Source: Pseudonocardiaceae bacterium
GTDB taxonomy: Bacteria; Actinomycetota; Actinomycetes; Mycobacteriales; Pseudonocardiaceae
Reading direction: 5' to 3'
Assembly (NCBI GenBank): GCA_050699835.1
Contig: JBOHFW010000055.1
Span: 1 to 39,499 of the forward strand
Length of the DNA: 39,499 nt
Below, in pieces: positions 8,677-33,135 of the stretch. Every line of letters starts with the position of its first letter. Position 1 is the stretch's first letter. A model generated the notes under the pieces. That model was not told where the DNA came from. It was given only the letters and a program-made list of their open reading frames with translations, and ran no database searches. The position numbers and the translations under genes were made by a program.

Positions 8677-8680
8677 CCAA

Positions 8681-11423: not shown

Positions 11424-11454
11424 GCGCGCCTCCGGGGCGATGAGTACGCCAGCG

Positions 11455-11694: not shown

Positions 11695-11779
11695 TGGCGT
11701 TTGTCCCTTCTCTCGGTCCCGGTGATCGGAGCGCAGCGCCCCGTCCGGCGATGCATTCTCCAGCTGTGGAGGACGGGCT

Positions 11780-13725: not shown

Positions 13726-13794
13726 TGAACACCCTGGCGGGCCACGCCGGTGATGCTGCCGGTCACGAAGTCCACCGAGGCATTCTTGTCGAGT

Positions 13795-13815
13795 GTCTAC
13801 AACAGTTGGGTCTAC
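13795..13815. promoter_or_regulatory. Direct repeat GTCTAC-N9-GTCTAC upstream of the fabD operon (candidate regulator site)
   Basis: GTCTAC at 13795-13800 and 13810-13815, in the 100-bp gap between the PucR-type regulator stop (13826) and the fabD start. Functional assignment is inference only. Confidence 0.2.
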
Positions 13816-13825
13816 TGGCGCTTCC

Positions 13826-15010
13826 TTACCACAGGCCGCGGGAGCGGGCCAGGCGACCGACCGCCAGGCCTACCCGCAGCACCAGCCCGTCCCGTGGGTC
13901 TCCAGGCACTCGCCCGGTGATCTCGGCGATGCGGCGTAGCCGGTAGCGGACCGTGTTGGGATGGACGAACAACCGCCGGGCACAGGCTTCCAGCACTCCG
14001 TTAGCGTCGAAGAAGGCGTCGAGGGTCTCGACCAGCCCACCGCTGGCCGCCGTCAGTGGCCGCATCACCTGGTCGACCAGCAGCCGTTCCGCCTCGGGGT
14101 CTCCGGCCAGCGCGCGCTCGGGGAGTAGCTCGGCGGCTGGTACCGGGCGTGGCGCCGTGGGCCATGCCGCCACGGCGCGCAGCGCGGACAGGGCATCAGC
14201 GGCGCTGCGGTGCGCCTCGGCCAGCGTGGGCACCATCGGTCCGACGACCACTGGACCGTCGCCGAAGGCGTCGATCAGCCATTGGTGGTCGTCCGGCTGG
14301 GCGGTCCGGCCGCTGACGACCAGCACTAGGCGGGAACCCTGCACCCCGACGAGCACCCCCCGGCCGGTGCGAGTGGCGATACCCCGAATGTCGGAGAGCA
14401 GCTCCGGTGCCTCGTCCGGCGGTGGATTGCCCACCAGCACAGTCGCCGGTGCCGATGGTTCCAAGCCGAGTGCTGCCGCACGGGACAGTAGCGACTCCTC
14501 GCCGTCCCCACGCATGATGCCGTCCACGACCAGGGCTTCCAACCGAGCGTCCCAGGCGCCGCGGGCCTCGGCGGCACCGGCATAGGCGCTGGCAGCGGCA
14601 AAGGCGACCTCGCGGCTGTAGCGCAGCGAGGCCTCAGTGAGCACGGCGCGCTCGGCGTCGTCGGCGGCGAGCTCGGGCAGTTGCTGCTCGAACACCAACG
14701 TCGCAACCCGGATCAGGTCGACGGTCTGGCGCAGGCTGACCCAGCGGCTCAGATCGCGCGGAGCGGTCCGGAACGCGCCGAAGGTGAGTCTGGTCGAGTG
14801 CTGAGGATCCTTGAGCCACTCAACGAAATTCGCCACGCTGGTCTGAGTGATCAGCAAGATCTCGGCCCGCTGGTTAGCCGGCAGCCGGCGGAACCAGGGG
14901 TAACGTAGCTCCATCTCAGCCACGCTGGCCGTGGCGAGCCCACCGGAGGCCAGTGCCAGCTTGCGCAGAGTGCTGGCGGACAGCGGGTGGGTACTCGTCT
15001 GGGCGGTCAT
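13826..15010 (-). CDS. fasR: PucR-family transcriptional regulator of the FAS-II operon (FasR/MabR-like)
   Basis: C-terminal PucR HTH LFVHPNTVRYRLRRIAEITG. Position immediately upstream of fabD matches FasR in Streptomyces and MabR (Rv2242) in M. tuberculosis. Start taken at MTAQTS (ATG 15010). Confidence 0.8.
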   Translation of the reverse strand: MTAQTSTHPLSASTLRKLALASGGLATASVAEMELRYPWFRRLPANQRAEILLITQTSVANFVEWLKDPQHSTRLTFGAFRTAPRDLSRWVSLRQTVDLIRVATLVFEQQLPELAADDAERAVLTEASLRYSREVAFAAASAYAGAAEARGAWDARLEALVVDGIMRGDGEESLLSRAAALGLEPSAPATVLVGNPPPDEAPELLSDIRGIATRTGRGVLVGVQGSRLVLVVSGRTAQPDDHQWLIDAFGDGPVVVGPMVPTLAEAHRSAADALSALRAVAAWPTAPRPVPAAELLPERALAGDPEAERLLVDQVMRPLTAASGGLVETLDAFFDANGVLEACARRLFVHPNTVRYRLRRIAEITGRVPGDPRDGLVLRVGLAVGRLARSRGLW

Positions 15011-15123
15011 GAGGCCAGCATCGCACGGCGACGCCAGAGAGAACGGAAGAACAACAGCACAATAACGGGAGAGCAACGGGCAATGGCCGCGCGCGATAGC
15101 GTTGCCGCAGGAGAGGAGAGACG

Positions 15124-15915
15124 ATGGTCAGTGCACCACCGAAGCTCGTGCCCCGAGTTGACGTCCGCCGGGCGGCCGAACGCAAGCACACCTCGCTCGC
15201 CTGGCTGAGCTCCTGGCATAGTTTTTCCTTCGGTCGCCACTATGATCCGGCAAACACCCATTTCGGCCTGCTGCTGGTGAATAACGATGACGTGGTGCAG
15301 GCCGGGATGGGGTTTGAGATCCACCCACACCGTGACATGGAGATCGTCACCTGGGTCCTGGCCGGATCACTGGTCCATGAGGACTCTCGGGGCAACATGG
15401 GGGTGATCTACCCAGGGCTTGCCCAGCGGATGAGCGCGGGTACCGGGATCCAGCACTCCGAGAGGAACGACTCCTGGCGCTTGGACGGCGAGCGGCACGA
15501 TCAGGATGTGCACTTCGTGCAGATGTGGGTGCATCCGGATATCCGCTCCGTCGAGCCCAGCTACCAGCAATTGGACATCGACAGCGAGCTGGGTCCCCTC
15601 GACGCGGGGTCGGGTGAGCTCGTGGTGGTGGCGTCCGGAATGGACGCTCACCGCGACCGCAGGGCGATTTCCATCCAGCAGCAGCATGCGGCGCTGCACG
15701 CGGCACGGCTGCAACCTGGCGCCAGTGTCGAGTTGCCGGTCGCGGCATTCGTGCACCTGTTCCTTGCGCGCGGCGCGGTGGATCTGGAAGGCACCGGTCC
15801 CCTCGACACCGGTGACGCCGCGCGGATGACCGCAGCCGGTGGCCAACGCATCACCGCCGGTCCCGCGGGCGCCGAAATCCTAGCCTGGGAAATGACCGCA
15901 CGCCTCGTCAACTAG
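15124..15915 (+). CDS. Pirin family protein
   Basis: Cupin metal box HPHRDMEIVTWVLAGSLVHEDSRGN and two-cupin length (263 aa). Confidence 0.85.
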   Translation: MVSAPPKLVPRVDVRRAAERKHTSLAWLSSWHSFSFGRHYDPANTHFGLLLVNNDDVVQAGMGFEIHPHRDMEIVTWVLAGSLVHEDSRGNMGVIYPGLAQRMSAGTGIQHSERNDSWRLDGERHDQDVHFVQMWVHPDIRSVEPSYQQLDIDSELGPLDAGSGELVVVASGMDAHRDRRAISIQQQHAALHAARLQPGASVELPVAAFVHLFLARGAVDLEGTGPLDTGDAARMTAAGGQRITAGPAGAEILAWEMTARLVN

Positions 15916-15929
15916 CCCCTCTCTCCCCA

Positions 15930-15963
15930 CGTCCTCCCGACAGGGAGACATATCGAGAGGACG
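15930..15963. terminator. Hairpin between the convergent pirin and aceE genes
   Basis: CGTCCTC (15930-15936) / GAGGACG (15957-15963) with a 20-nt loop containing GGAGACATATCG (also found at 8084-8095). Confidence 0.4.
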
Positions 15964-15965
15964 GC

Positions 15966-18731
15966 TCAGGCGACGCCTGGATCGGAAGTTTGGGGGCCAG
16001 CGGACTGGGGGTCGTCGATGCGGTAGTGGTGGGCTGCTTGGGTGACGATGGACGGTTTCAACTCGCCGCGGCGAGTTAGTGCGGCCAGCGCGGCGACCGT
16101 GATCGACTCAGCGTCGACGAGGAAGTGCCGCCGGGCCGCCGGGCGGGTGTCGGAGAAGCCGAAGCCGTCGGTGCCGAGCGTGACGAACTCGGTGGGCACC
16201 CACGGACGGATGAGGTCGGGCACCGCTCGCATCCAGTCCGACACCGCGACCAACGGGCCCACCGCGTTCTGCAGCACCTGGGTGACGTGCGGTACCCGCG
16301 GCTCGGCCTCGGGATGCAGCAGATTGTGCCGATCCAACTCGATCGCCTCGCGGCGCAGCTCCGTCCACGAGGTTGCCGACCACACGTCGGCCTGCACGCC
16401 CCACTCCTGGGCGAGCATCTGCTGAGCCCGCAGGGCCCAGGGCAGGGCCACCCCGGAAGCGGCCAGCTGTACCCTCGGATTGTCGGAGCCCCTTGCGGGA
16501 GCGGGAGCGTAGCGGTACAGGCCCCGCAGCAGGGCGTCGACGTCGAGATCGGCGGGCTCGGCCGGCTGGCGGTAGGGCTCGTTGTAGATGGTGAGGTAGT
16601 AGAACACATTCGGATCGCGTCCCGCAGGATCGTCACAGTCACCGTACATCCGGCGCAGCCCGTCACGGACGATGTGCGCGATCTCGAAGCCCCACGCTGG
16701 GTCGTAGGCCACTACTGCGGGGTTAGACGCGGCGAGCAGCAAGGAGTGCCCGTCGTTGTGCTGCAGACCTTCGCCGACCAGTGTGGTGCGGCCGGCGGTC
16801 GCGCCGAGCAGGAACCCGCGAGCCATCTGGTCGCCCGCCGCCCACAAGCCGTCGCCGGTGCGCTGGAAGCCGAACATCGAGTAGAAGATGTAGACCGGGA
16901 TCAGCGGCTCGTTGTGCGTGGCGTAGGACGTGCCTGCCGCGGTGAACGAGGCGGTGGAACCCGCCTCGTTGATGCCTTCATGCAGGATCTGGCCCTGCTC
17001 GCTCTCCCGGTAGGCCAGCATCAGCTCGGCGTCCACCGAGGTGTAGAGCTGCCCATGCGGGTTGTAGATCTTCTGCGTAGGGAACATCGAGTCCATCCCG
17101 AAGGTGCGCGCCTCGTCCGGGATGATGGGGACGAATCGTGACCCGATCTCGGGATCTTTGATCAGCTCGCGGAGTTGGCGGACGAACGCCATCGTGGTGG
17201 CGACCTCCTGCTTGCCTGAGCCGCGGCGCAGCACGTCGTAGACCTTGTCGCCGGGCAGCACCAGAGTCTTTGACTTGGTCCGTCGCTCGGGCACGAACCC
17301 ACCGAGGGCCCGGCGACGCTCGCACAGGTACCGGATCTCGGGCGCGTCCGGTCCGGGGTGGTAGTACGGCGGTAGCGCGGGGTTCTCCTCGAGCTGCGTG
17401 TCGGTGAGTGGGATGCGCTGGGCGTCGCGAAGGCGCTTGAGGTCCTCTAAGGCGAGTTTCTTCATCTGGTGGGTGGCGTTGCGGGCTTCGAAGTGCGGGC
17501 CCAGGCCGTATCCCTTGATGGTCTTGGCCAGGATCACGGTGGGCTGGCCGTGGTGCTGGATGGCGGCCTGGTAGGCGGCGTAGACCTTGCGATAGTCGTG
17601 CCCACCACGCTTGAGGTTCCACAGGTCGGTGTCGGACAGGTCTTTGACGAGTTCCTTGGTGCGCGGATCCCGGCCGAAGAAATGTTCCCGCACGTAGCCA
17701 CCATCGTTGGCCTTGTAAGTCTGGTAGTCACCGTCAGCCGTGACGTTCATCAAGTTCACCAGCGCGCCCTGCCGGTCGGCGTGCAGCAGGGCGTCCCACT
17801 CGCGGCCCCAGATCACTTTGATGACGTTCCAGCCGGCACCGCGGAAGAACGACTCCAGCTCCTGAATGATCTTTCCATTGCCCCGGACCGGGCCATCGAG
17901 ACGCTGCAGGTTGCAGTTCACCACGAAGGTCAGGTTGTCCAAACCCTCAATGGCCGCCACCTGGATCTGCCCGCGGGACTCCGGCTCGTCCATCTCGCCA
18001 TCGCCGAGGAAGGCCCAGACGTGCTGGTGAGAGGTGTCCTTGATGCCGCGAGCATGCAGGTAGCGGTTGAGTCGGGCCTGGAAGATCGCGTTGATCGGGC
18101 CCAACCCCATCGAGACGGTGGGAAACTCCCAGAAGTCCGGCATCAGCCTCGGGTGCGGGTAGGAGGGCAGGCCGCCGCCCGGGCCGGCGTGCGAGAACTC
18201 CTGCCGGAATCCGTCGAGCTGGTCGGCGGATAGCCGGCCTTCCAGGAACGCCCTGGCGTAGATACCGGGAGAGGCGTGGCCCTGGATGAAGACCTGGTCC
18301 CCGCCGCCAGGATGGTCCTTGCCCCGGAAGAAGTGGTTGAAGCCCACCTCATAGAGCGCGGCGGAGGAAGCGTACGTAGAGATGTGACCGCCGACGCCGA
18401 CCCCGGGACGTTGTGCCCGATGCACCATCATCGCCGCGTTCCAGCGGATCCAGGCGCGGTAGCGTCGCTCGGTGTCCTCATCTCCCGGGAACCACGGCTC
18501 GTTCTCGGTGGGGATGGTGTTGACGTAATCCGTGCTAGTCAGCGACGGTACGCCGACGCCGGTCTCGCGGGCCCGTTCGAGCAGCCGCAACATCAGGTAC
18601 CGGGCGCGCTGCTTACCGCCGGAGAGCACCGCGGAGTCGAAGGCTTCTAACCATTCCGCGGTCTCTTCGGGGTCGATGTCCGGCAGGTGAGCCGCGACCC
18701 CGTCCCGGATGACTCGCACTCGCGCAGGCAT
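15966..18731 (-). CDS. aceE: Pyruvate dehydrogenase E1 component (homodimeric type)
   Basis: [18 protein letters not shown]-terminus, [24 protein letters not shown], about 920 aa. Start taken at MPARVRV (ATG 18731); uncertain by a few codons. Confidence 0.9.
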
Positions 18732-18994
18732 GCGATCGTTCTGCGTGGTCAAGGGATCTCCTCGCCTTGATCTGTGGTGATACACCTCGTTCTACGGGCG
18801 GACCGGGGCAGGACCGGCCGCCTGAAGGCCATCGTGCCCCATGATTGTCAGCTTGGCGATCGGCGCCAGTGCTATCTGGGCTATCTCGGGCTTTACCTAG
18901 CCCGAACCATCTCGGCAATCCCGGATCGGCGTGTCCCGCTGCCGGCAGTTGCGCTCTAGCCGGACCGCAGTGTTCGCTTGTACGCCATTGAGTT

Positions 18995-19486
18995 ATGAAG
19001 CGCCGGGCGAACGTCGCCGGGCTTGACGTTGGTGGAGGGGTGAACACCGTGGTCGCCGCCGCGGCGGGAGACACCGGCAGACTCGGCGTTGCCGAGAGGC
19101 TCGGGATCGAAACGGACATGGTCGTGCAGGAGCTCGGCTGGGACGAGGACGTCGATGACGACATCCGCGCGGCGATCGAGGAGGTGATTGGTGCTGACCT
19201 GCTTGATGAGGACTCCGACGAGATCGTCGATGTGGTGCTGCTGTGGTGGCGCGACGAGGACGGAGATCTGGTCGACACCCTCGTCGATGCCCGGGGGCCG
19301 TTGGCTGACAACGGAGTGATCTGGGTATTCACTCCCAAGACCGGTCGGAATGGCCATGTCGAGCCCTCGGACATCGCCGAGGCAGCCCCCACTGTCGGTT
19401 TGGCGCAGACGTCCAACATCAGCGTGTGCGACGACTGGACAGCCACCAGGCTGGCCACGCCGAAGGCAGCGAAGTCCAAACGCTGA
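18995..19486 (+). CDS. DUF3052-like conserved protein (Rv2239c-like)
   Basis: ..VVQELGWDEDVDDDIRAAIEEVIG..LLDEDSDEIVDVVLLWWRDEDGDLVD.. is typical of this family. Synteny between aceE and ahpE. The true start may be downstream of 18995. Confidence 0.7.
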   Translation: MKRRANVAGLDVGGGVNTVVAAAAGDTGRLGVAERLGIETDMVVQELGWDEDVDDDIRAAIEEVIGADLLDEDSDEIVDVVLLWWRDEDGDLVDTLVDARGPLADNGVIWVFTPKTGRNGHVEPSDIAEAAPTVGLAQTSNISVCDDWTATRLATPKAAKSKR

Positions 19487-19562
19487 ACCTCGGTGACCTC
19501 GGTACGCGAACGTCCGGTCAGTTGGCCCGCGACATGACGGCGAATCGAGGGAGCTGCGTACC

Positions 19563-20021
19563 ATGCCGCTGGAGGTCGGGGACCAGGCACCGGATTTCAC
19601 TCTGAAGGATCAGAACAACCAGGAGTGGACGCTGTCGGAGTTGCGCGGTGACCGCACCGTGCTCGTGGTGTTCTACCCGTTCGCCTTCACTGGGATCTGT
19701 ACCGGTGAGCTGGACCAGCTGCGTGACGATCGGGCGGAGTTCGCCGACGTGCAGGTACTGGCGGTTTCAGTGGACTCGGTGTTCACCCTTCGGACTTGGT
19801 CCGATCAGCGGGGTTATGATTTCCCCCTGCTCTCCGACTTCTGGCCACACGGCAAGGTTGCACAGGACTACGGCGTGTTCGACGACAAGGTTGGTGTGGC
19901 CAACCGGGGTACCTTCCTGGTGGATACCGACGGCGTGATCCGTTTCGCCGAGATGAAAGGCCCAGGTGAAGCTCGTGACCAGACCGTCTGGAGGCAGGCC
20001 CTGGCCGCGCTGCCAACCTAG
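19563..20021 (+). CDS. ahpE: Peroxiredoxin, AhpE-like
   Basis: VGDQAPDFTLKDQ..., peroxidatic Cys box FYPFAFTGICTGEL, 152 aa. Synteny with Rv2238c. Confidence 0.85.
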   Translation: MPLEVGDQAPDFTLKDQNNQEWTLSELRGDRTVLVVFYPFAFTGICTGELDQLRDDRAEFADVQVLAVSVDSVFTLRTWSDQRGYDFPLLSDFWPHGKVAQDYGVFDDKVGVANRGTFLVDTDGVIRFAEMKGPGEARDQTVWRQALAALPT

Positions 20022-20029: not shown

Positions 20030-20104
20030 GGGCGCATAGCTCAGTGGAGGAGCGCTCGCCTTACAAGCGAGAGGTCGCAGGTTCGACCCCTGCTGCGCCC
20101 ACCA
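20030..20104 (+). tRNA. tRNA-Val (anticodon TAC), CCA encoded
   Basis: Hand-folded cloverleaf. Acceptor GGGCGCA/TGCGCCC; D stem GCTC/GAGC; anticodon stem CTCGC/GCGAG with loop CTTACAA; T arm GCAGG-TTCGACC-CCTGC; discriminator A plus CCA. Confidence 0.9.
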
Positions 20105-21293
20105 CTCTGACCAGCTATTATGTGGTCGGCGGTTGGGACTTTCTCGCGGGGCGACACCACACGTGACACAAATCGGCTGCGATGCGGCCTCGTGGCACGC
20201 GCACGCGACGGGTCGCCGGGGCACGAACGAGGTATCGACACGCTGCCCAGCGGCGCACTGCGAGTCCGCGTCTACGCCGGCATCGACCCGGTCAGCAAAC
20301 GCCGTCACTACCTCACCGACGTCATCCCCGCGGGGCCCACGGCAGCCCAGATGGCCCGCAGCGCCCGGGACCGGCCCAGGAGGTCGAAGAACGGCGAAAC
20401 CCCCGCACCGCGGCCACCCTCACTCAACTCCTCGAGCGCTACCTCGACCAATTCGACGGGGCGCCACGAACACTGGAGCTCTACCGCAGTTACGTGCGCA
20501 CGCACATCGGCCCGCTCATCGGCGAGGTGAAAGTCGCCGCGCTGGACGCGGAGATCCTCGACTCCTACGCGGAGCTGCGGCGCTGCCGGGACCACTGCAC
20601 AGCAGGCCGGCGCGGCCAGCTACAACACCGCACACCCGGCAAGCACCAGTGCGACAGGCGGTGCCGCCCGCACACCTGCCGGCCGCTGGGCGCGACCACC
20701 ATCCGCCACATGCACTTCATCCTCTCCGGTGCCTACCGGCGCGCGGTGCGGTGGCGATGGGTCAGCGTCAGCCCGCTCACCCAGGCCACGCCACCGGCCG
20801 CGCCGACCCCGAACCCGAAACCGCCCAGCGCCGCGGACGCGGCGCGGATCGTGAACCACGCCTGGCGGGACCCGGACTGGGGCACCCTGGTCTGGGTCGC
20901 CATGACGACAGGGGCGCGACGGGGCGAGTTGTGCGCACTGCGCTGGTCACACGTCGAGCTGGACCCCGAAAAAGCGGTGCTCTGGCTACGCCGGGCGATC
21001 AGCCACACCACCGAGGGCTGGATCGAGAGCGACCTCAAGACTCACCAGCAGCGCCGGGTCGCGCTGGACCCCGAGACCCTCGCCGTGCTCACCGAACACC
21101 GCGAACGCTGCCAGGCCCGCGCCGCCACGCTCGGACTCGACCTCCACCAGGACGCCTTCGTCTTCTCACCCGAACCGGACGGCGGCAGGTTCCTGGCCCC
21201 TAGCTCGCTCACACAGCGATACGACCGGCTCGCCGAACGCCTCGAGCTGGACACCACCTTCCACAAACTCCGGCACTACTCCGCCACCGAGCT

Positions 21294-21630
21294 CAAAGTG
21301 AGCGGAGTTGCGTTGGGCGCATCATTCGGCAAGATCCGTGAACCGCTCCTGCCTGCGACGTCGCCGTTCGGACTGAATCAGGGTCGGCTGGTGGAGGCCT
21401 AGTCACACAGGTCCTGACCAGGCAATAGATCCTGTTGTTGCATTGAACGTCACGATGTTGCACCCGATTCGGTGGCATCCTGCGCCGGATAGTTGCATCA
21501 GATGCAATCGACAAGATCGGCTGCCGCGTCGCTTCCGCTCCTCAGCGCGCTGCGCGCGCCTGCGGTGCGGGTCGACTTGCCATCGAGCCAGGGGAGGCAT
21601 TCGCGTGGTTGGAACATTGCTCTCTACCAG
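21294..21630 (+). other. About 337-bp non-coding insertion splitting the integrase catalytic domain (nature unknown)
   Basis: Deleting 21294-21630 joins ..HYSATE-L(ct|t)-FTAGVDIRTVAGRLGH.. in frame with canonical spacing. The length is 3n+1, matching the frame offset between the two halves. The insert has stops in all frames; boundaries are good to a few nt only. Confidence 0.4.
21493..21507. promoter_or_regulatory. Perfect palindrome TTGCATC-A-GATGCAA inside the integrase insertion
   Basis: Read directly. Two further GTTGCA words lie at about 21436-21441 and 21456-21461. Function unknown. Confidence 0.2.
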
Positions 21631-22337
21631 TTTCACGGCCGGCGTGGACATCCGCACCGTGGCCGGCCGGCTCGGCCACGCCGGCGGAGGCAGCACCACC
21701 CTCAAGGCCTACACCGCCTGGGTATCCGAAGCCGACCAACGAGCAGCGAAGACCATCAGCGGCCGAATGCCGCCACTGCCCACCCAACCCGACCCCGTCG
21801 ACCGAGCCAAAACCGACCCACACAGCCCCTACCAGCGCATCGCCGCGCGGCTGCGGCATGACATCCTCACCGGAACCCTCACCGACGGCGACCACCCGCC
21901 CTCAGCGAAACACCTCGCCACCCAGCACAACGTCTCGCCCGCCACCGCGCATCGCGCACTGACCCTGCTCAAGACATGGGGATTGATCACATCCAGCCAC
22001 AGCCAGCGGGCGACAGTGACCCGACCGGCGCAGCCCGAACCCCAACCCCACGACACCCACACAGCAACCAGCCAACCAGCCGATACAGACACCGACGCAG
22101 GCCGAGAACTTCTCCACCTCGACGTGCGGTGGCGGGGCACCACCATCAAGAAACTCACCACGGAAGCCAACCCCACAAACCCCACCGAACTCCGCCGGCC
22201 CCTCACCGACGCCATCCGCCGCCACGGACACGACGAATCCCACATCGGCGACTACGAAATGGACATCCGCGACCCCGGCACCCACCATCTCCTCACCACA
22301 TTTGTCACCACCACACCGCCCGCTGAGCCGCGGGGGT

Positions 22338-23483
22338 TCACGCCGTGAGGGTGAAGGCGTCACGCACGACGGTGCTTGGGTCGTCTAGCCACACCGTCTG
22401 GGTGTCGGTGGTCATGGTCATCCCGAAGCGGGTGAGGCCGGGTTTGCCGTGTTCGTACCACCAGTCGTAGGCGGCTACGGCTTCGTCCCACAGCCGGCGT
22501 GGGCCGAGTTGGTGGACGACGAGTGGGTTCGGTGAGGTGAGGTGAGCATCCAGCCGGGCCCATGACTTGGTGGTGATGTCGTCGAGCTCCAGGACGTGGT
22601 GGTCTTCGCCGAACTTGTTCAGTTCGACGGTGAGGGCGCAGCGGGGAACCTGAAGTCCGATAGAAAACCCGGCCTGATCGCTGTTGATCATGCGGAAGAA
22701 ATCCCATCCGTGCACATCGGTGGTCGTTACCTGCGCCTGCTCGATGTCGGTCCGCTCAGGTTCGTAGAACCGGCGTTGGTGGGCGCGTAGCCGCATGAAC
22801 GCCAGATCCCCCTCGAAGCGGCCGGTGGCGCTGTGATCGGTGATCACGCGCAGGGTCAGCATGACGCCATTGCAGTAGTCGGTTCCCCATGGTGTGACGA
22901 TGAGACCATCGGGCCGGGTTTGCGCCAGCCAGGCCTTGGGGACACTCTCGCGGACTGAGGCGGTCGCCACCACCCGGTCGTAAGGCGCCCCGTCCGAGTA
23001 CCCTTCCACCCCATCTCCAGTGACCACCAGCGGTGAATACCCAGCGGCAGCCAGCGCCGCTCGCGCGTCGTCGGCGATCACCGGATCGACCTCAATGCTC
23101 ACCACCCGGCCTCGCATCCCCACTCGCCGGCACAACAGCGCGGCGTTCCACCCAGTGCCTGTGCCGATCTCGAGCACCGAATGTCCGGGGCGTAAGTCCA
23201 GCGCATCGAGCATGCCGGCCACGATCGAGGGCTTGCTACACGAGCTGGACGGTGACCAGCCGATATCACCGGCCGCGGTGCGACCCTCATCGACCTGAGT
23301 GATCACAGGCTCGTTCGCCGAGACCAACTCCCGCCAGCGTCGCGGATGATCGTGTTTGGACAGCGCGGTGAACCCAGGCCGTGAATGAGCAGCGACGATA
23401 TCAAGCCAGATGGTCTCGGGAATAAACGGTTCCCGGGGCACCTGCGCGATCAACTCACGCCAATCGGTACGGGTTGCCACCAC
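22338..23483 (-). CDS. Protein-L-isoaspartate O-methyltransferase (PIMT) homologue with a ~170-aa C-terminal extension (RiPP-associated type)
   Basis: N-terminus ..DWRELIAQVPREPFIPETIW.., SAM box VLEIGTGTGWNAALL, VVSIEVDPVIADDARAAL, VTGDGVEGY...YDRVVATASV, then a non-PIMT C-terminal domain. GTG start at 23483, 6 nt after the stop of the small peptide ORF. Confidence 0.8.
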   Translation of the reverse strand: MVATRTDWRELIAQVPREPFIPETIWLDIVAAHSRPGFTALSKHDHPRRWRELVSANEPVITQVDEGRTAAGDIGWSPSSSCSKPSIVAGMLDALDLRPGHSVLEIGTGTGWNAALLCRRVGMRGRVVSIEVDPVIADDARAALAAAGYSPLVVTGDGVEGYSDGAPYDRVVATASVRESVPKAWLAQTRPDGLIVTPWGTDYCNGVMLTLRVITDHSATGRFEGDLAFMRLRAHQRRFYEPERTDIEQAQVTTTDVHGWDFFRMINSDQAGFSIGLQVPRCALTVELNKFGEDHHVLELDDITTKSWARLDAHLTSPNPLVVHQLGPRRLWDEAVAAYDWWYEHGKPGLTRFGMTMTTDTQTVWLDDPSTVVRDAFTLTA

Positions 23484-23489
23484 GATTCC

Positions 23490-23633
23490 CTAGTCGTCCC
23501 TCTTCTCCGGCTCATCCCTCTCATGCCTGCCGCGACCGTAATCCTTGGGCTTCTCCGTCTTATCCGGCTGGTAGACACCCTGACCATCGCGGTCACCATC
23601 ATGCTTGTTCGGCTTGCTGTCCTGACCCAACAC
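23490..23633 (-). CDS. Unannotated 47-aa highly charged peptide (candidate methyltransferase substrate/RiPP precursor)
   Basis: Not in the ORF track (under 60 aa). GTG 23633 to TAG 23490-23492: MLGQDSKPNKHDGDRDGQGVYQPDKTEKPKDYGRGRHERDEPEKRDD. GAGGGGA lies 4 nt upstream, and an in-frame TGA three codons upstream fixes the start. 35 of 47 third positions are G/C and none is A. Tightly coupled to the downstream methyltransferase. Confidence 0.55.
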   Translation of the reverse strand: MLGQDSKPNKHDGDRDGQGVYQPDKTEKPKDYGRGRHERDEPEKRDD

Positions 23634-23649
23634 CGCATCCCCTCATGAT

Positions 23650-23663
23650 GGCCACTAGTGGCC
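23650..23663. promoter_or_regulatory. Perfect 14-bp palindrome GGCCACTAGTGGCC upstream of the peptide ORF (candidate operator)
   Basis: Read directly. Lies 16 nt upstream of the peptide GTG on the minus strand. Confidence 0.3.
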
Positions 23664-23982
23664 CCACCCGTCGCTATGGCCACAGTACGAGCCCTCCGCG
23701 CCACCACGGCATCCAGCGGGGCGGTCTCAAACAGGAGCCACGGAGGCCGAGTCGGCGGGTGAGGTCGTCGATGGCGGCGGCGAGTACCGTGGGCCGTGGC
23801 GGACGGTATAGGCGTCGAGGGTCGCCAAGGGAGAGGTTGACGACTCGGGCCAACGTCCGCGGCGTGGCGTAAGGAGAGTCGTGAACGGATCAACCCGACT
23901 GCTCATGTCGTCCACGACCGCTGGATACTCTGCGAAAAACCGTCTTCGAGGTCCTCGGCGGGGGGCTGGCAGCACCGTTGCA

Positions 23983-24138
23983 TCAGCGACTCCGCGCTCG
24001 ACCAAATGGCAACCGACGCACGATCACTACCCGCCTGGGCTCATCCACGACGGCGTAGTAGATGAACCCGTAGTTCGTTGGTCCGTAGCAACTATGCCAG
24101 GACACTAACGCTAACGATCTTGTTTTGGTCTTGATCAC
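23983..24138 (-). pseudogene. RelE/ParE-like toxin C-terminal fragment (weak)
   Basis: Small minus-strand ORF, not in the track: ..NYGFIYYAVVDEPRRVVIVRRLPFGRARSR* resembles the C-terminal beta-strands of RelE/ParE toxins (YR.iY.v.d....v.v..v.hR). At 51 aa from GTG 24138 it is too short for a full toxin. No partner antitoxin recognised. Confidence 0.3.
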
Positions 24139-24282
24139 TATAGAGACTTATTCGGCAACGCAAGTTTGGAACAAGGTGTGTCCCAACCCCCTCTACGGTG
24201 CTCTCAGGGGTGAGCTGAGCGGCTCGTCAACGATGACGGTGCCCCCGGAGGGTACCGGCCCGCTCCGGACGCGCGCCACAGG

Positions 24283-24643
24283 TCACTCTGGTTGGCTTAC
24301 GGTCACAGGGACCCTGCGATTGTCAGGGCCGTAAGCAGTGGTCGACGAATCAGCCATGAGCAGATGGTCTCCTTGAGTGGAACCGGCCGGCCACCAGGAG
24401 TCGATGTCGGGGGCCAACGGCTTCAACCGGTGACCGGCCGGGATCTTGGGGGGACGGAAGCTCGAAGTAGGTACTGGCCCGCAGCGCGGTGCACGCCTCG
24501 CAGCAGCAGCCGCGTTCCCCGGACGCCGACTCACACCAGTCGCAGCGGCACCCCTTGTGCCACCGCGAGAGCAGCCCATGGCCGATCAGGTCACTGTCGG
24601 GCTGCTTGGCCTTACCCGGCGGGGTGATGGTCCTGGTCGTCAT
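24283..24643 (-). pseudogene. Small Cys-rich protein (HG..W.KGCRCDWC motif), frameshifted at a G/C homopolymer
   Basis: ATG 24643: MTTRTITPPGKAKQPDSDLIGHGLLSRWHKGCRCDWCESASGERGCCCEACTALRASTYF (GC3 about 90%). After the C6 run (24448-24453 on +), coding-like GC3 moves to the frame of ORF 24283-24579 (..KIPAGHRLKPLAPDIDSWWPAGSTQGD..). The G.RC..C motif is common in actinobacterial mobile-element small proteins (from memory). Confidence 0.5.
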
Positions 24644-24669: not shown

Positions 24670-24885
24670 TCACTTGGCAGCCGCCAGCATCGCCTTCGCC
24701 ACCTCGACGGCCTCGGCACGCGTGAGGATCGTCGCGGTGCCCATCGTGGCGTCCAGCGTCACCACCACCCGGCGCTGAACGACGCCGCCCACCAGGTCCG
24801 TCTCCTGCCATAGGATGATGGTGCGGCTCCGGCCCTCTGGATCTTGAGCGGTGAGGGCAAATCGGTGCGACTGGTCGGCGGTCAT
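24670..24885 (-). CDS. Hypothetical 71-aa protein
   Basis: MTADQSHRFALTAQDPEGRSRTIILWQETDLVGGVVQRRVVVTLDATMGTATILTRAEAVEVAKAMLAAAK. Its ATG overlaps the upstream stop as ATGA (24882-24885). Confidence 0.6.
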   Translation of the reverse strand: MTADQSHRFALTAQDPEGRSRTIILWQETDLVGGVVQRRVVVTLDATMGTATILTRAEAVEVAKAMLAAAK

Positions 24886-25205
24886 CGCGTCCTCGTCTCT
24901 CTCAGGTCCCCGGTTTCCACGCAGAGGCTGAACAGCACCAGGTGCACCCGGCACCACGCAGCGCACGGCCACCGGCGACGACACCACCACCGTTTCGGGC
25001 ACGCCGGGCAACGCCCGTACCGCGGTGGTTGATGCGGCAACAGCACCGCGCGCAGCGCATCGACCAGTGTCGGGTCGTTGCCGGCGCGTTCCAGCTCACC
25101 GAGGCGACCCCATACTGCGCCGACAGGGTTGCCGTGCTTAGGCAGACCAGCCAGGAACCGTTGCGTGGTTTCTGGCTGGTCGTCGTCGCGTTGCCGGATC
25201 GTCAT
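24882..25205 (-). CDS. Hypothetical 107-aa protein with a GRCPACP...WPC motif
   Basis: MTIRQRDDDQPETTQRFLAGLPKHGNPVGAVWGRLGELERAGNDPTLVDALRAVLLPHQPPRYGRCPACPKRWWCRRRWPCAAW... Its ATG 25205 overlaps a TGA (25202-25204) that ends the upstream coding frame. Confidence 0.6.
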   Translation of the reverse strand: MTIRQRDDDQPETTQRFLAGLPKHGNPVGAVWGRLGELERAGNDPTLVDALRAVLLPHQPPRYGRCPACPKRWWCRRRWPCAAWCRVHLVLFSLCVETGDLRETRTR

Positions 25206-25847
25206 CGCCCGGGGTTGGGGTTGGCTAGCGTCTGGATCGCCCGCCTTCGCTTCAACAGCTCTGCGACGAGGGTGTCGTTTGCTGCGTTGCGACCGCGGTC
25301 CGCGTTGTCCAGGAACAGCTTGACTAGCGCCTCCCCCGGGGTCAGAGGAGACACTGCGGGGAGAGCGCGTCGCGGGTACGTCGGCGGGGGCGTTGGTCAC
25401 GGTTGACGAGAATGAACGCCGGTTTTCCTCGCTCCAGACCTGAGCGTTGGCCTCCTCCAGGCGCATGAGCAGCTGTTCTCGGAGCAGTGGATGAGGCGAG
25501 AGGTGCGCAAGCGAGGGCACCACCATGTGATGTACCTGCGTCCGCTTCAGTTCATCTGTCAGTTGGTAGAACATGCCGTAGTACTCCGGCTGGTACTCAG
25601 AGAAGATCGCGGTGAGGCATAAGCTCTCCGCCTCGGCAAGCTTGTGAAGACCACATTCCAGCTGCTGAACGTCGTCATCGTCCAGGTCTTCAGTGACCCG
25701 TAGGTAGCCATAAGCCAGGGGTTTCCTGTTCCTCCGTGCAGCTTTACGTTGGCAGGCCGGATCGGCGATGGGTTCGGAGTGACCAGTGACCAGCAGGCGT
25801 GCCGGCCTGGCCAGCGGGGAAGACGGAGAGGCAGCGCGCATGGTCAT
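25202..25847 (-). pseudogene. Resolvase-N-terminal-like protein lacking the catalytic Ser, frameshifted near 25332-25341
   Basis: ATG 25847: ..RKPLAYGYLRVTEDLDDDDVQQLECGLHKLAEAESLCLTAIFSE..VVPSLAHLS..LLMRLEEANAQVW mimics a serine-recombinase N-domain but has RVT instead of RVS. Past the CCCCGGGGG run the high-GC3 frame (about 80% vs 48%) switches to ..EALVKLFLDNADRGRNAANDTLVAELLKRRRAIQTLANPNPGR*. Alternatively the tail is a separate 50-aa gene from GTG 25354. Confidence 0.5.
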
Positions 25848-26041
25848 CGGGCCCGCCTCAGAATGGCTTCGGCCAGGGTGGTCATGTCCGCTGCTGTCAA
25901 CCGCACGCCGGGGTTGTCCAGTCCATGAATCGTCCAGGTGCCATCGTGCTCGTGGATCATGACTATGGTGCACTGGCTGCCATCGTCGGTGCGATGGCCT
26001 TTTGCTGTGAGACGGGCGCGTTTCGTTGGGTACGTGGTCGG
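25844..26041 (-). pseudogene. Small hypothetical gene with unclear start (in-frame stops upstream)
   Basis: Best-GC3 frame reads PTTYPTKRARLTAKGHRTDDGSQCTIVMIHEHDGTWTIHGLDNPGVRLTAADMTTLAEAILRRAR*, ending in ATGA overlap with the next gene. The only canonical start inside is ATG 25960 (38 aa). The same frame upstream reads MTTEAGARP*SR*. Confidence 0.35.
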
Positions 26042-26218
26042 TTACCTCGATCACGGTCTGGCCCCTGCTTCGGTCGTCATGCTCCAGATGGACGGCACCA
26101 GAGCCGGGGAATACCGGACTGGTGGAAGCGGGGCAGGCGTCCTGTGAAGGACGGCACACCAGCTCAGGGTTCAGCCCGGCCCTGGGGCCAGGGCAAGGAC
26201 GCTAAGGCAGAGGCGAGC

Positions 26219-26264: not shown

Positions 26265-27476
26265 TTAGTTCAGCGATAGCCCGACGCGGGCAGCCAGCTG
26301 CGTGGCCTCGGTGACTACCGAGCGGGGGCCATGTGTGATTACCGTGCGCAAGGTGGCGTGAGCGGCCGGCCGGTGCTGCATGTCTTCAGGGGCCTCTCGT
26401 TCAGCAGCGTGCAGCAGAAGCAGAGCAGCGGCGAAGTTGCGGCGTTGCTCATAGCCCTTGGCTTGATCGAGTAAAAAAGCCACTCGTCGTTCAATAGAGG
26501 GGGAATGTCCGTAGTCGATTTGTTCGGCCAGTCGCAGACCCTCCGTAGCCTCGCCCGCCTCAATTTCGACGGTCACGGCGTACATGGCGACGTTGGTTGG
26601 TCCAAACGCAGTCCACAAGGTGTTGCATTCACCCGTTTGATCGGCTAGCGGAGCGACCTCCCGTAAGCGGCTGCGAGCGGTCCACGCGTCACCCTGACGG
26701 GAGACCGCGACCGCCCCCATCAACAGTAATGTGCCATAGACCGCCGCCGTCTCGGCGCCGCCCTCGGCGATGAGGGGGCGGAGGGCGTCGGCAGCGCGCA
26801 TTGCCACCATTTCTGCGCCCTCGGGCTGGCCGTCGGCGAGCAGCACGTGGGCCAAGTTCCACCGCGCGACGGACAGCCGCAACGCATCGTCCGCGATCTC
26901 GGCCGCTCGCACCGTCCGGTCGGCCGCCAGCAACGACAGATCACATCTGCCGAGTCGTTTGGTCACAGTCCGTACGAGGCTGTAGAGATCAGCAGCGCAA
27001 GTCTGGGCATGTCGCCAGCTCGTCGCGGCCTCAGCTTGAGGTGCTTGCACCGCCGATTCGGTGTCGATGATGAGCTGCGGCAGTTGGCCTGCGAGCTGGC
27101 TGTAGCGCTGGGGTGACGTTTGCCATGTCCGCCAGGCCCGCGCTACCCGCGCGTGCACCTCCGTGGCGAGGGGCACCTCGGAGGTCATCAGCATCGGATT
27201 GACCAATGCGCAGTAGAGAGCCTTTCCGGTCGTCGTATTCGGTGGTTGGTTGCTCCTCGGTAGTTCCTGCCCCAGCAACTCGGCCACCGACACCCCGAGC
27301 ACCTCAGCGAGCTTCGTCAGCACGGCAACGGTCGGCAGCTTCATTCCGCGCTCAATCTGGTACAGGTAGTCGGCCGTAATTCCGGCCAGCCCGGCCACCA
27401 CGGTCTTCTTCCGCCTCCCGGCGGTTCGGCGGGCTCGCACACGCTCACCGATGGCCCGCGCCAGCTGCTCGTCCAT
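26265..27476 (-). CDS. XRE-family HTH regulator with a large helical (TPR-like) C-terminal domain
   Basis: HTH segment LAGITADYLYQIERGMKLPTVAVLTKLAEVLGVSVAELL, followed by about 320 aa of Ala/Leu-rich helical repeats. Divergent from the HAD gene. Confidence 0.8.
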   Translation of the reverse strand: MDEQLARAIGERVRARRTAGRRKKTVVAGLAGITADYLYQIERGMKLPTVAVLTKLAEVLGVSVAELLGQELPRSNQPPNTTTGKALYCALVNPMLMTSEVPLATEVHARVARAWRTWQTSPQRYSQLAGQLPQLIIDTESAVQAPQAEAATSWRHAQTCAADLYSLVRTVTKRLGRCDLSLLAADRTVRAAEIADDALRLSVARWNLAHVLLADGQPEGAEMVAMRAADALRPLIAEGGAETAAVYGTLLLMGAVAVSRQGDAWTARSRLREVAPLADQTGECNTLWTAFGPTNVAMYAVTVEIEAGEATEGLRLAEQIDYGHSPSIERRVAFLLDQAKGYEQRRNFAAALLLLHAAEREAPEDMQHRPAAHATLRTVITHGPRSVVTEATQLAARVGLSLN

Positions 27477-29175: not shown

Positions 29176-29802
29176 TCAGGCGATCGCGTCTTCGGGCCTG
29201 CGCAATGCACGTGTGAGCGGCGCCGTGGTGTCAGCGAGTCGGGCGGCCAATGGGCGCTGCCCCGAGGAATGCGGACGCCCATCCCGGGCCCGATCCTCCA
29301 ACGCATCCCGCAACCGGCGGGACGTGTCATCGGAGGACCGGCAGGCGTGCGCGACCTCGATCCGCAGAAAGAACCGATCATCCGCATCGGAGAGATCCCG
29401 GCGATTCGCCTGCCCATGCAACGTGATGTCATGCTCCTCCGACAACGTTAGGAGCTCCTCTAAATCCCGGGGCTGGCGCATCAACCGATCCGGATGATAC
29501 ACAATTACATGCCGCAACTGCCCCGCCCGGATCGCGTCCAGTAACGCATTCCACCCCGGACGACACCGATTCCGCTGCCACGCCGACTGATTATTATCCA
29601 CAAACACAGCACCCGGGGCAATCACCAATCCCAGCCGCTCGGCCACCTCACGGCACAACCGCTCCTGGCGATCCACCCCGGTCTGATCCTCATCCCGGGC
29701 TCTGGAGATCCGGCAATAGATCGCCGCCGGCTGCCCAGCCCACCCCGACGACCCACCCTCACCCCGAGTCCTGCCCCGGGTGTGACGCTGCGCGCTGCCC
29801 AT
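29176..29802 (-). pseudogene. Large serine recombinase, N-terminal resolvase domain only (truncated)
   Basis: From ATG 29802: ..AAIYCRISRARDEDQTGVDRQERLCREVAERLGL..WQRNRCRPGWNALLDAIRAG..VIVYHPDRLMRQPRDLEELL.. carries the catalytic Ser in the RIS context. It stops after 208 aa, with no recombinase or zinc-ribbon domains. Confidence 0.7.
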
Positions 29803-29835
29803 AAGGCCGTAGTGTATGAACGAGGCATGAGCCGG

Positions 29836-30048
29836 GTCGACATCGACACCCCGCTCGGCCAGGAGCTCTTCCACGTCACGGTAGGAGAGCCCGAAACGCA
29901 GATACCAGCGCACCGCCAAGGTGATCACCTCCGGCGGAAACCGGAAACCAGCGAACGCCGAGGGCGCGACCGACGGGGCGACACAGCGAGCGGCACTCAT
30001 CAACCAAGCATGACCACCGCTGCTCCAATCCACGGACGCAACAGTGCC
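29836..30048 (-). mobile_element. IS6/IS26-family IS fragment (terminal IR plus first ~50 codons of the transposase)
   Basis: Outer end GGCACTGTTGCG at 30048 (IS26-type IR GGCACTGTTGCAAA from memory). Encodes MSAARCVAPSVAPSAFAGFRFPPEVITLAVRWYLRFGLSYRDVEELLAERGVDVD, matching the IS6 transposase N-terminus (..ILWAVRWY..ISYRDLEEMLAERGV.VDH). Homology ends about 29836. Confidence 0.8.
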
Positions 30049-30218
30049 CATCAGTGCCATCAAACATCCTTTCGCGGATGCGTGTATCATTCTGTCCAGC
30101 TGCCGCTCTTTTTAGTGACCTTGATTACGAGTCCGGAACAGGAATCCAGTGCGCAGCTTTGGCCACACAGCAACGACCTCCCACGCGCCTCGCCGGCATC
30201 TGCCGACGCGACGGAGCG

Positions 30219-32653: not shown

Positions 32654-32745
32654 TGTGGGCGACGCGTGAAAACTGACCCCCTCCTGGTGGCGAGGCCTCG
32701 GGCGAGACCCTGGTTGATCGTTGATCAGGGGGAGGGGATGCGGGG

Positions 32746-32853
32746 GTGTTGGCTGTGGAGGATTGGGCTGAGATCCGCCGGTTGTATCGGTCGGAGGGGA
32801 TGCCGATCAAGGTGATTGCGCGGGTGATGGGGTGTTCGAAGAACACAGTCCGT
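32746..32853 (+). mobile_element. IS21-family transposase (IstA) N-terminal fragment
   Basis: VLAVEDWAEIRRLYRSEGMPIKVIARVMGCSKNTVR matches the conserved IstA HTH N-terminus. Only about 36 codons remain, abutting the IS110 fragment. Confidence 0.7.
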
Positions 32854-33135
32854 CTTACGACCCGGCACATGCTTCAAATGCGCGGCATTGACCAACAGCA
32901 CCTCGAAATCATCCTCCAGCAGGTAATACGGCGCCTTCCAATACACGCCCGTGGACTCCATCGCCACATGCGTCACACCCACTGACGCCAGCCAGTCCCG
33001 CAGCTCCAACAGATCCGGCGTAGTCGCTCCGAACGACCGAACCTCCTCGGCCAACTTCCCCCGATCACTGACCACCCGGACACACACCACCAGCAACGCC
33101 TGACCCACATCAATCCCCGCACATCGATCAATCAA
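32848..33135 (-). mobile_element. IS110-family transposase N-terminal (DEDD) fragment
   Basis: From TTG 33135: MIDRCAGIDVGQALLVVCV..FGATTPDLLELRDWLASVGVTHVAMESTGVYWKAPYYLLEDDFEVLLVNAAHLKHVPGRKTD has the characteristic IS110 DEDD boxes (GIDVG, AMESTG, VNA..K...GRKTD). It breaks at about 32848, where the IS21 fragment begins. Confidence 0.75.

Follow-up and report, generated by a model that had tools for sequence, protein, structure and literature searches.

Organization of the Locus

We analyzed a 39,499-nucleotide stretch of DNA (hereafter the window), in which a short gene encoding a 47-aa peptide lies directly upstream of a gene encoding a 381-aa methyltransferase (Table 1). The peptide gene ends with TAG at 23490–23492, and the GTG of the methyltransferase follows 6 nt past this stop codon on the same strand; the methyltransferase is probably translationally coupled to the peptide gene. 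An in-frame TGA (23643–23645) precedes the peptide gene, with three codons separating it from the GTG. A sequence-only reading of this DNA had described both ORFs, and their coordinates, the GTG, the TAG, the GAGGGGA, the upstream TGA and the 6-nt gap were confirmed.

A recount of the peptide gene also reproduced the earlier figures: G or C at 35 of 47 third codon positions without any A (22 G, 13 C, and 12 T), 13 acidic and 11 basic residues, and two Asp-Gly dipeptides, at residues 12–13 and 16–17. The peptide has 9 Asp and consists of 13% Gly, 9% Pro, 19% Asp, and 13% Lys. It is net acidic, with a charge of -2.7 at pH 7.4 and a pI of 5.6. No Cys is present in the 47 residues, nor was a hydrophobic segment, a recognizable leader or a cleavage site found in them.

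Table 1. Features of the peptide–methyltransferase locus, with positions in the window.
Feature	Position	Strand	Basis	Sequence
Precursor peptide gene, 47 aa, GTG start	23490..23633	-	ORF list; homologues immediately precede the methyltransferase gene at related loci	MLGQDSKPNKHDGDRDGQGVYQPDKTEKPKDYGRGRHERDEPEKRDD
Shine-Dalgarno-like GAGGGGA, 4 nt before the GTG of the peptide gene	23638..23644	-	Read from the sequence	
Asp16-Gly17 codons, predicted methylation/aspartimide site	23583..23588	-	Predicted from conservation only	
Peptide L-aspartyl O-methyltransferase, PIMT homologue (PAMT), 381 aa	22338..23483	-	GTG start; Pfam PCMT, TIGR04188	
GXGXG S-adenosylmethionine-binding motif, G107-T-G-T-G111 in VLEIGTGTGW	23151..23165	-	Columns invariant in a 14-sequence alignment	
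Extra C-terminal domain, residues ~236–381, acidic, predicted substrate-recognition domain	22338..22778	-	Outside Pfam PCMT; covered by TIGR04188	
WXXXGXP motif, W342-Y-E-H-G346-K-P348	22440..22460	-	W and P invariant in a 14-sequence alignment of relatives	

The pair is located in an integrase-bearing island adjoining tRNA-Val. Nearly every neighbor had been described as decayed, which held only for part of the island genes, namely an interrupted integrase and a piece of an IS110 element. The housekeeping genes in the 20 kb to the left of tRNA-Val were intact, and so, to its other side, were the ORFs of the HTH regulator, the HAD hydrolase, and the resolvase-domain protein. The palindrome GGCCACTAGTGGCC, to which attention had also been drawn, is indeed present 16 nt upstream of the peptide gene (23650–23663) and is unique in the window. 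As a conserved operator it was rejected, since it occurred in 0 of 84 related loci and the DNA upstream of the ribosome-binding site was not conserved. Neighbor decay and the palindrome add nothing to the case for an imiditide presented below.

The sole conserved stretch upstream of the peptide ORF in an alignment of eight loci was a GAGAGGGG-like block. A promoter and terminator scan of positions 22000–24400 found nothing. In a search for the island ends, the 3' end of tRNA-Val did not recur even with up to 3 mismatches tolerated, and long direct repeats of a convincing kind were lacking. An Rfam scan of the window returned tRNA only.

Conservation of the Peptide–Enzyme Pair

Stretches of 47 or more codons without a stop number 510 in the six frames of the window, and the peptide ORF is not significant by length alone in this GC-rich DNA. 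We accepted it as a real gene because it is conserved next to related enzymes, not because of its length. Among non-redundant, evaluable loci with an enzyme identity of at least 50% (n = 37), the charged peptide gene was intact upstream of the methyltransferase in 32. In the remaining five loci, the small ORF was frameshifted (one locus), present as remnants (two) or absent (two). The gap between the two genes was at most 10 nt wherever the small ORF was intact. Altogether, roughly 40 peptide–enzyme pairs were assembled.

The substitution pattern was determined in eight close loci. Differences in the peptide gene numbered 97, 118, and 368 at the first, second, and third codon positions, respectively, and 278 of the codon differences were synonymous compared with 185 that were non-synonymous. 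Judged by these substitutions, purifying selection acts on the peptide frame. Overlapping ORFs in alternative frames across the peptide gene, such as 23450–23893 (-) and 23385–23648 (+), were rejected as selected frames, because the most variable position is the third of the 47-aa frame. Moreover, the pairwise identities of peptide and enzyme were correlated (r = 0.78), and none of 2000 permutations gave a value as high.

The neighboring genes varied from locus to locus around homologous pairs, and the peptide–enzyme pair is therefore the sole conserved unit. When a conserved downstream partner was sought, the small ORFs that follow the pair at four homologous loci resembled neither one another nor the ORFs flanking the pair in the window. 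A conserved protease, transporter or immunity gene adjoining the pair was found in none of the loci examined. These comparisons indicated that both genes are real and are kept as a unit. Loss of the small ORF beside orthologous methyltransferases had been named beforehand as grounds for abandoning the pair; its retention and the third-position pattern speak in favor of the pair instead.

Annotation of the precursor is uneven. The gene is sometimes uncalled in genome records, and the record of one locus (L002) assigns it to a regulator gene upstream, as the tail of that gene.

Probable Assignment to the Imiditide Class

The two genes very probably form an imiditide (type I pamtide) module, in which the 47-aa peptide serves as substrate for the methyltransferase whose gene starts 6 nt further on. 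The conservation of the pair and the clade of the enzyme both support the minimal precursor-plus-PIMT module that the sequence-only reading had suggested. Since the imiditide class was already published in 2023, the pair adds a member to a known class.

The published mining pipeline for imiditides selects enzymes of 300–450 aa with GXGXG and, as precursors, same-strand ORFs of 30–75 aa that contain Asp and lie no more than 500 bp upstream or 1000 bp downstream. The pair passed all of its explicit filters. The 381-aa enzyme matches Pfam PCMT (E = 7.7e-29, residues 80–203) and has GTGTG at residues 107–111. Its canonical PIMT core is extended by about 78 residues at the N-terminus and by about 145 at the C-terminus, in agreement with the earlier description of a PIMT-type enzyme with an additional C-terminal domain. 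[quoted passage not shown] The computed pI of this domain was 4.95, and the published supplement gives 4.90 for that of NmaM. The enzyme also has a conserved LELDD patch with a possible part in recognition. The precursor likewise has the features of the class, namely a length of about 45 aa, a sequence rich in Gly, Pro, Asp, and Lys, and a conserved Asp near Gly or Pro. Its Pro and Gly contents lie under the class means of type I pamtides (16.8 and 17.3%, respectively), while its Asp content is above the type I average.

The layout is that of the characterized pairs NmaA-NmaM of Nonomuraea maritima and SpaA-SpaM of Streptomyces sparsogenes, in which a precursor of about 45 aa, often unannotated, is encoded directly upstream on the same strand. 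As in the window, imiditide enzymes are PIMT homologues of 370–380 aa with GXGXG and with additional regions at both ends, the C-terminal one being an acidic domain that bears WXXXGXP. Their precursors are linear, Cys-free, and charged, with Gly, Pro, Asp, and Lys and a conserved Asp adjoining Gly, and no further conserved biosynthetic gene accompanies them.

Close counterparts were found within the Pseudonocardiaceae. Loci of Amycolatopsis rubida, other Amycolatopsis spp., Actinopolyspora, Saccharopolyspora, and Actinoalloteichus (L019–L031) encode enzymes 50–58% identical over the full length to that of the window (57–58% for the homologous pairs of Amycolatopsis). Their homologous peptides are acidic, with a DGQG core and a C-terminal G-x-K/R-H-acidic tail, and the gene gap is at most 10 nt. 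The supplement of the imiditide preprint lists Amycolatopsis among the imiditide-encoding genera. Compared with these loci, the window falls in a distinct subclade with 72–87% enzyme identity and a longer peptide of the pattern KPNKHD...YQPDKTE.PKDYGRGKHE. Most genomes with this subclade were from uncultured Pseudonocardiales, and a Pseudonocardiales homologue in NCBI (P0004) is 85% identical. Net-acidic precursors occurred both in MAGs of Pseudonocardiales type and in isolates of the Pseudonocardiaceae.

More distant members showed the same arrangement. Over residues 8–373, the enzyme shared 43% identity with an Actinomadura enzyme whose upstream peptide is rich in Gly, Lys, Pro, and His, and it also aligned over its full length with Amycolatopsis enzymes bearing similar upstream peptides. 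Cao et al., whose 2023 list comprises 670 clusters, search for the class by a 41-aa C-terminal motif; identity to this Actinomadura enzyme of the described type served here as a proxy for that motif. Together with the motifs, the family-model matches and the predicted fold, these alignments place the enzyme in the RiPP-associated PIMT clade. Actinomadura-type peptides share the motif frame of the window peptide, with KH near the N-terminus, DG, and then G-x-K/R-H near the C-terminus. However, the window enzyme is only 40–45% identical to the Actinomadura and Streptomyces types, and its precursor is net acidic whereas the Actinomadura peptides examined are neutral to basic.

Cysimiditides (type II pamtides) have the same two-gene layout of precursor and methyltransferase, but their precursors need two CxxCxGxG zinc-ribbon motifs, and the Cys-free window peptide does not belong to them. 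The pair adds a conservation-backed member and a coherent subclade to the RiPP class, and the current picture of the class is unchanged.

Predicted Modification Site and Mechanism

One Asp-Gly was kept across all peptide groups (A–F) and aligned to Asp16-Gly17, while Asp12-Gly13 was substituted in several close relatives. Asp16 is the best candidate for the modified residue on the basis of this conservation, and the invariant Asp-Gly provides a clear predicted modification site. In the cysimiditide FcaA, the conserved Asp-Gly is the modification site according to the published supplement, which describes synthetic ITVTSDGK peptides. In the characterized NmaA, on the other hand, the modified Asp is followed by His and not by Gly as at the likely site of the window peptide, so that analogy does not secure Asp16 as the site.

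By analogy with NmaA/NmaM and SpaA/SpaM, the peptide is probably the substrate of the enzyme, with methylation and then aspartimide formation. The disordered, highly charged peptide would be bound via the extra N-terminal region and the acidic C-terminal domain of the enzyme. The methyl group of S-adenosylmethionine would then be transferred to the side-chain carboxylate of one specific L-Asp, likeliest Asp16 in DRD-G-QG. Attack of the backbone nitrogen of Gly17 on the methyl ester would yield an aspartimide 18 Da below the unmodified peptide, which may last or hydrolyze, chiefly to isoaspartate. In an AlphaFold2 model of a direct peptide–enzyme fusion, a weak set-up with a peptide lacking alignment depth and no linker, the peptide was undocked (pLDDT 31–38). 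With a 47-aa peptide and a 381-aa enzyme, the pair is a compact system for studying how one of 9 Asp is picked in a disordered peptide.

Possible Biological Role of the Peptide

A second explanation retains the linked pair and takes the peptide as an intracellular disordered small protein, in which enzyme-driven conversion of Asp to aspartimide or isoAsp would provide a switch or a modification with set timing, e.g., in the physiology of stress or dormancy. It overlaps the imiditide explanation in chemistry and differs only in biological role. The lack of conserved protease, transporter, and immunity genes beside the pair in the loci examined is consistent with such a role, as is a net-acidic peptide without hydrophobic segment, leader or cleavage site. 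An XRE/TPR-type regulator also stands upstream of the pair in 6 of the 12 other close loci, and the window has one 2.8 kb away; however, regulators of this family are very numerous in these bacteria, and those compared shared only 24–32% identity with the one in the window. Furthermore, published imiditides also occur without such accessory genes and are treated as RiPPs all the same. We consider the switch explanation unlikely.

For an imiditide module, the charge of the precursor deserves attention. According to a 2026 review, imiditides carry a strong positive charge. The peptides of groups A–D, from Pseudonocardiales-type MAGs and Pseudonocardiaceae isolates, had pI values of 4.3–6.0 with one exception, and the net-acidic precursors of the subclade argue against the general idea that imiditides act on membranes via positive charge. 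It is conceivable, though with a low probability, that net-acidic Asp-Gly precursors represent a functionally distinct imiditide branch. Its members would be intracellular disordered mini-proteins with aspartimide or isoAsp at the invariant DG as a switch or timer, rather than cationic membrane-active exports, and the module could travel on integrative islands, often under XRE/TPR-type regulators.

Relation to Other PIMT Families

The best curated family match of the enzyme was TIGR04188, the methyltransferase of ATP-grasp peptide maturase systems (291.7 bits, E = 9.3e-87, full model length), and mobile-element genes in its island are decayed. Both observations would fit a tailoring enzyme that outlived the decay of a graspetide, lasso peptide or lanthipeptide cluster, with the small ORF not being its dedicated primary substrate. 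However, the TIGR04188 score remained below the cut-off of 380 bits, and the window has no ATP-grasp domain, so that membership in a graspetide system is not indicated. TIGR04364, the methyltransferase of FxLD/lanthipeptide systems, matched the catalytic core only (residues 80–199) with 127.7 bits compared with a cut-off of 320, and Lan enzymes were lacking.

As is usual for imiditides, no primary RiPP enzyme (ATP-grasp, lasso cyclase/peptidase, LanB/LanC or YcaO) was found nearby. A Pfam scan of 30 ORFs of the window gave no ATP-grasp, Asn-synthase-like lasso cyclase or Lan enzyme, as the sequence-only reading had stated, and such enzymes were also absent beside most homologues. The neighbors of six homologues varied, which runs against orthologues being embedded in full lasso, graspetide or lanthipeptide clusters, an outcome that reading had listed as damaging to its proposal. 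The one exception was locus L085, where a graspetide cluster lies at a distance of 1.4 kb, but this cluster is separate and has its own distinct methyltransferase. The ATP-grasp-linked enzyme of L085 was 36% identical to that of the window in a partial alignment, and its N-terminal region was not alignable. Taken together with the retention of the pair as a unit and the purifying selection on the peptide, these results largely refute the idea of a cluster leftover, which is now very improbable.

Graspimiditide enzymes such as AmdM and ThfM (TIGR04188) belong to the same superfamily and have the same domain order as the window enzyme. Their chemistry, from Asp methyl ester to aspartimide, is what we infer for the window. 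Their substrates, in contrast, are already cyclized by an ATP-grasp enzyme, for which the window has no gene.

That the enzyme is a general protein-repair isoaspartyl methyltransferase, and the upstream ORF an unrelated small hydrophilic protein or no gene, has next to no probability: its catalytic core does match canonical PIMTs in sequence and fold, but it missed the cut-offs of all canonical models (TIGR00080, 84.5 vs. 159 bits; NF001453, 98.6 vs. 188 bits), exceeds the single domain of about 210 aa of canonical Pcm by its two extensions with WXXXGXP, and is preceded by a conserved ORF that co-varies with it. These sub-threshold scores, the WXXXGXP motif and the full-length, sub-cut-off TIGR04188 match agree with the earlier view that this is not a housekeeping PIMT.

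A role in defense was considered and rejected, as PADLOC gave a generic methyltransferase-core match to mad2 (E = 6.9e-16, residues 84–200) and no other component.

The AlphaFold2 model of the enzyme had a mean pLDDT of 79. In this model, the C-terminal domain follows the order strand-helix-four-strands-helix and then three more strands. The best match among solved structures was the PIMT of Thermotoga maritima (1DL5), which aligned across both the catalytic and the C-terminal domains. It is only 19% identical to the window enzyme and is of the repair type, for which no peptide is known as a dedicated substrate. According to Lee et al., 1DL5 is the only solved structure within the RiPP-associated PIMT clade.

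Conservation of the Peptide Gene and the Methyltransferase Gene

The minus-strand peptide ORF described in the sequence-only reading was found again in the ORF table and the sequence, together with its GAGGGGA element, the in-frame upstream TGA, 13 acidic and 11 basic residues, two Asp-Gly dipeptides (residues 12-13 and 16-17), and the gap of 6 nt between its stop codon and the GTG of the intact methyltransferase ORF. The computed third codon positions were 22 G, 13 C, 12 T and no A. Because the window contains 510 stretches of 47 or more codons without a stop, the size of this ORF is not evidence of a gene, and its reality is therefore decided by conservation. The palindrome reported upstream is present in the window but absent from the related loci searched, and no conserved sequence was found upstream of the peptide ribosome-binding site in the related loci compared.

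Features of the window and of related loci (L numbers) carrying relatives of its methyltransferase
Feature	Position	Strand	Remarks
Peptide ORF	GTG 23633 to TAG 23490-23492	-	47 codons; ORF table and minus-strand sequence 22200-23900
GAGGGGA	4 nt upstream of peptide GTG	-	read from sequence
In-frame TGA upstream of peptide GTG	23643-23645	-	read from sequence
Palindrome GGCCACTAGTGGCC	23650-23663		upstream of peptide gene; sequence search of window
Methyltransferase ORF	GTG 23483 to 22338	-	381 aa
GXGXG motif	enzyme residues 107-111
WXXXGXP motif	enzyme residues 342-348
tRNA-Val(TAC)	20030-20104	+
Tyrosine-integrase ORF	20182-21402	+	3' of tRNA-Val
425-aa ORF	24882-26159	-	no Pfam match; degenerate resolvase-like AYGYLRVT segment
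XRE-type HTH_31 regulator	26265-27476	-	TPR-like repeats
304-aa ORF	29176-30090	-	Resolvase N-terminal domain
169-aa ORF	32725-33234	-	fragment of IS110-family (DEDD) transposase
XRE-type HTH_31/TPR-like regulator in relatives	L003 2329-3807; L087 4306-5793; L036 4608-5825		also L007, L005

Among the candidates scored, 2370 database relatives of the methyltransferase had E <= 0.001, and the closest named ones came from Pseudonocardiales and Pseudonocardiaceae metagenome-assembled genomes. We fetched 87 related loci and inspected the same-strand ORFs ending just 5' of the enzyme gene. The count was made on 38 non-redundant loci whose enzyme was at least 50% identical to that of the window (L037 was not judgeable). 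An intact homologous peptide gene ended at most about 10 nt from the enzyme start in 32 of them, in line with the expectation that the small ORF is kept beside orthologous methyltransferases; it was frameshifted in one (L001), reduced to a remnant in two (L006 and L011) and absent from two (L020 and L038). In a 36-codon core of the eight closest loci, the differences at codon positions 1, 2 and 3 numbered 97, 118 and 368, with 278 synonymous versus 185 non-synonymous codon differences. The codon-position pattern indicates that the 47-aa frame, and no overlapping frame, is under purifying selection. Moreover, the pairwise identities of peptide and enzyme were correlated (r = 0.78 over 42 pairs, reached by 0 of 2000 permutations), and the genes flanking the pair varied between loci. 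These comparisons indicated that the small ORF is a genuine gene that has been conserved, and that peptide and methyltransferase together are the conserved unit.

Gene calling by JGI and NCBI recovered the peptide only sometimes, with lengths of 45-54 aa. In locus L002 (3244-3993, plus strand), from a public Pseudonocardiales MAG, the peptide frame extends without a stop into the preceding gene and appears in the annotation as the C-terminal end of a 249-aa HTH_31/DUF5753 protein, probably an artefact hiding the precursor. Some relatives show a decayed precursor gene. L011 (1-300) carries a tandem pair of methyltransferase genes with only a peptide tail (..SGKHSEDDK) between them, and L006 (5900-6001) retains only a C-terminal remnant (..DHNDRKDN) immediately 3' of a DUF397 gene. 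In L001 (3834-4004) the frameshift follows KTENP, after which the sequence continues out of frame (PPGYGHGRHQKDEPPKQDD); this frameshift may stem from an assembly error.

Peptide Groups and the Predicted Modification Site

The upstream peptides sorted into six groups that match the enzyme tree. One Asp-Gly is retained in all of them, equivalent to Asp16-Gly17 of the window peptide, while Asp12-Gly13 is substituted in several close relatives. From this conservation, Asp16 is the predicted modification site. A net acidic charge is the rule in groups A-E, where only the peptide of L036 (group A) departs from it; the group F peptides range from neutral to basic, except for that of L082, which is slightly acidic.

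Upstream-peptide groups
Group	Members	Pattern
A	window clade	..KPNKHDGDRDGQGVYQPDKTE.PKDYGRGKHE.D..
B		..DRDGHK.D.YDHSKTKDV.ESGGGKHDKDD..
C	Amycolatopsis	MAKHE.K.EGDGQGT.DP.KTKDV.DAGGGRHDSED..
D	Actinopolyspora, Saccharopolyspora, Actinoalloteichus, others	MGKRD.DRDGQG..QP.KWENWGSKDDGNKHE.D..
E	Streptomyces	..NPQDDSDSGNKHGGGGSDEGGNTNDGQGPADG.
F	Actinomadura	MGKHDEKKDGDGKWDKP.PP...PPGGGKHEKGK

Domain Structure of the Methyltransferase

The Pfam PCMT match was limited to residues 80-203 of the enzyme. NCBIfam TIGR04188 (ATP-grasp peptide maturase system methyltransferase) matched end to end (residues 5-363) with 291.7 bits, below its cut-off of 380 bits, and TIGR04364 and the canonical PIMT models gave core-only matches far under their cut-offs. 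[quoted passage not shown] In the AlphaFold2 model (mean pLDDT 79.1), the C-terminal part has the strand-helix-four-strands-helix order given for the clade by Lee et al. (PMC10787088). The best solved-structure match to this model was the T. maritima PIMT 1DL5, with both domains aligned; the sequence search of solved structures returned PIMT cores only. The Actinomadura meridiana enzyme was 43% identical over residues 8-373. A defence reading through PADLOC mad2 of the MADS system (core residues 84-200, E = 6.9e-16) was rejected, since the other MADS components are absent and the match looks like shared methyltransferase-fold similarity only.

Comparison With Imiditides and Type I Pamtides

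The same kind of pair makes up the imiditides (Cao et al., 10.1101/2023.04.07.536058) and the type I pamtides (Lee et al., PMC10787088): a precursor of about 45 aa, frequently missed in annotation, accompanied by a PIMT homologue that carries a C-terminal domain. For the two classes, 670 and 1414 clusters were reported, respectively, and Amycolatopsis is named among the genera with imiditide clusters (supplement of 10.1101/2023.04.07.536058). NmaM and SpaM (Streptomyces sparsogenes) were shown to act on the linear precursor, methylating a single Asp that then becomes an aspartimide (10.1101/2023.04.07.536058; PMC10787088). The window pair passed all explicit filters of the imiditide pipeline (10.1101/2023.04.07.536058); the 41-aa class motif is published as a figure only. 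No ATP-grasp, lasso or Lan enzyme was present among the window ORFs scanned, as previously stated. The observation was correct, and the interpretation as an imiditide-like two-gene module is supported. The class is already described and this pair is a further member, for which methylation of Asp and conversion to an aspartimide would be expected by homology. A 2026 review presents imiditides with strong positive charge and the idea of membrane interaction, with which the net-acidic precursor clade of the window, a modest point of interest, is at odds.

In L085, whose enzyme is 84% identical to that of the window, a separate graspetide-type cluster (8594-10806, minus strand) lies on the opposite strand 1.4 kb downstream of the pair. 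Besides an ATPgraspMvdD enzyme, this cluster has a methyltransferase of its own, a 414-aa protein with a PCMT domain. That methyltransferase, adjoining the ATP-grasp gene, was 36% identical to the window enzyme over residues 79-374 only, with many gaps.

Genomic Context of the Pair

Left of 20 kb, an intact core-metabolism block (8681-19590) in the usual actinomycete arrangement carries genes for a carboxyltransferase, ketoacyl synthase, FabH, FabD, a PucR-type regulator, pirin and pyruvate dehydrogenase (PDH) E1; an AhpC/TSA protein gene is also intact in this part. The decay earlier ascribed to nearly every neighbour is thus limited to the island on the right side of tRNA-Val. This island-like stretch contains an interrupted tyrosine integrase, a GntR domain, the pair, the XRE/TPR regulator, a HAD hydrolase, a resolvase-domain ORF and an IS110 fragment. 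The catalytic C-terminus of the integrase (..AGVDIRTVAGRLGHAGGGSTTLKAYTAW..) resumes only at about 21625, within ORF 21443-22348 (plus strand), which also bears a GntR HTH (residues 129-191); a lower-GC segment of about 320 nt (~21296-21625) thus splits the integrase. No att repeat of the tRNA-Val 3' end was found in the window. Further mobile-element traces in the island are the resolvase-domain ORF (304 aa), the IS110 fragment (169 aa) and the 425-aa ORF. The location beside tRNA-Val is a modest point of interest.

A same-strand XRE-type HTH_31/TPR-like regulator lay upstream of the pair in 6 of 12 other close loci, and in several Streptomyces loci too. The distance from its end to the enzyme gene is usually about 180-510 nt, compared with 2.8 kb in the window. 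Since the copies of the relatives are only 24-32% identical to that of the window and the family is very large, the link between regulator and pair may be loose.
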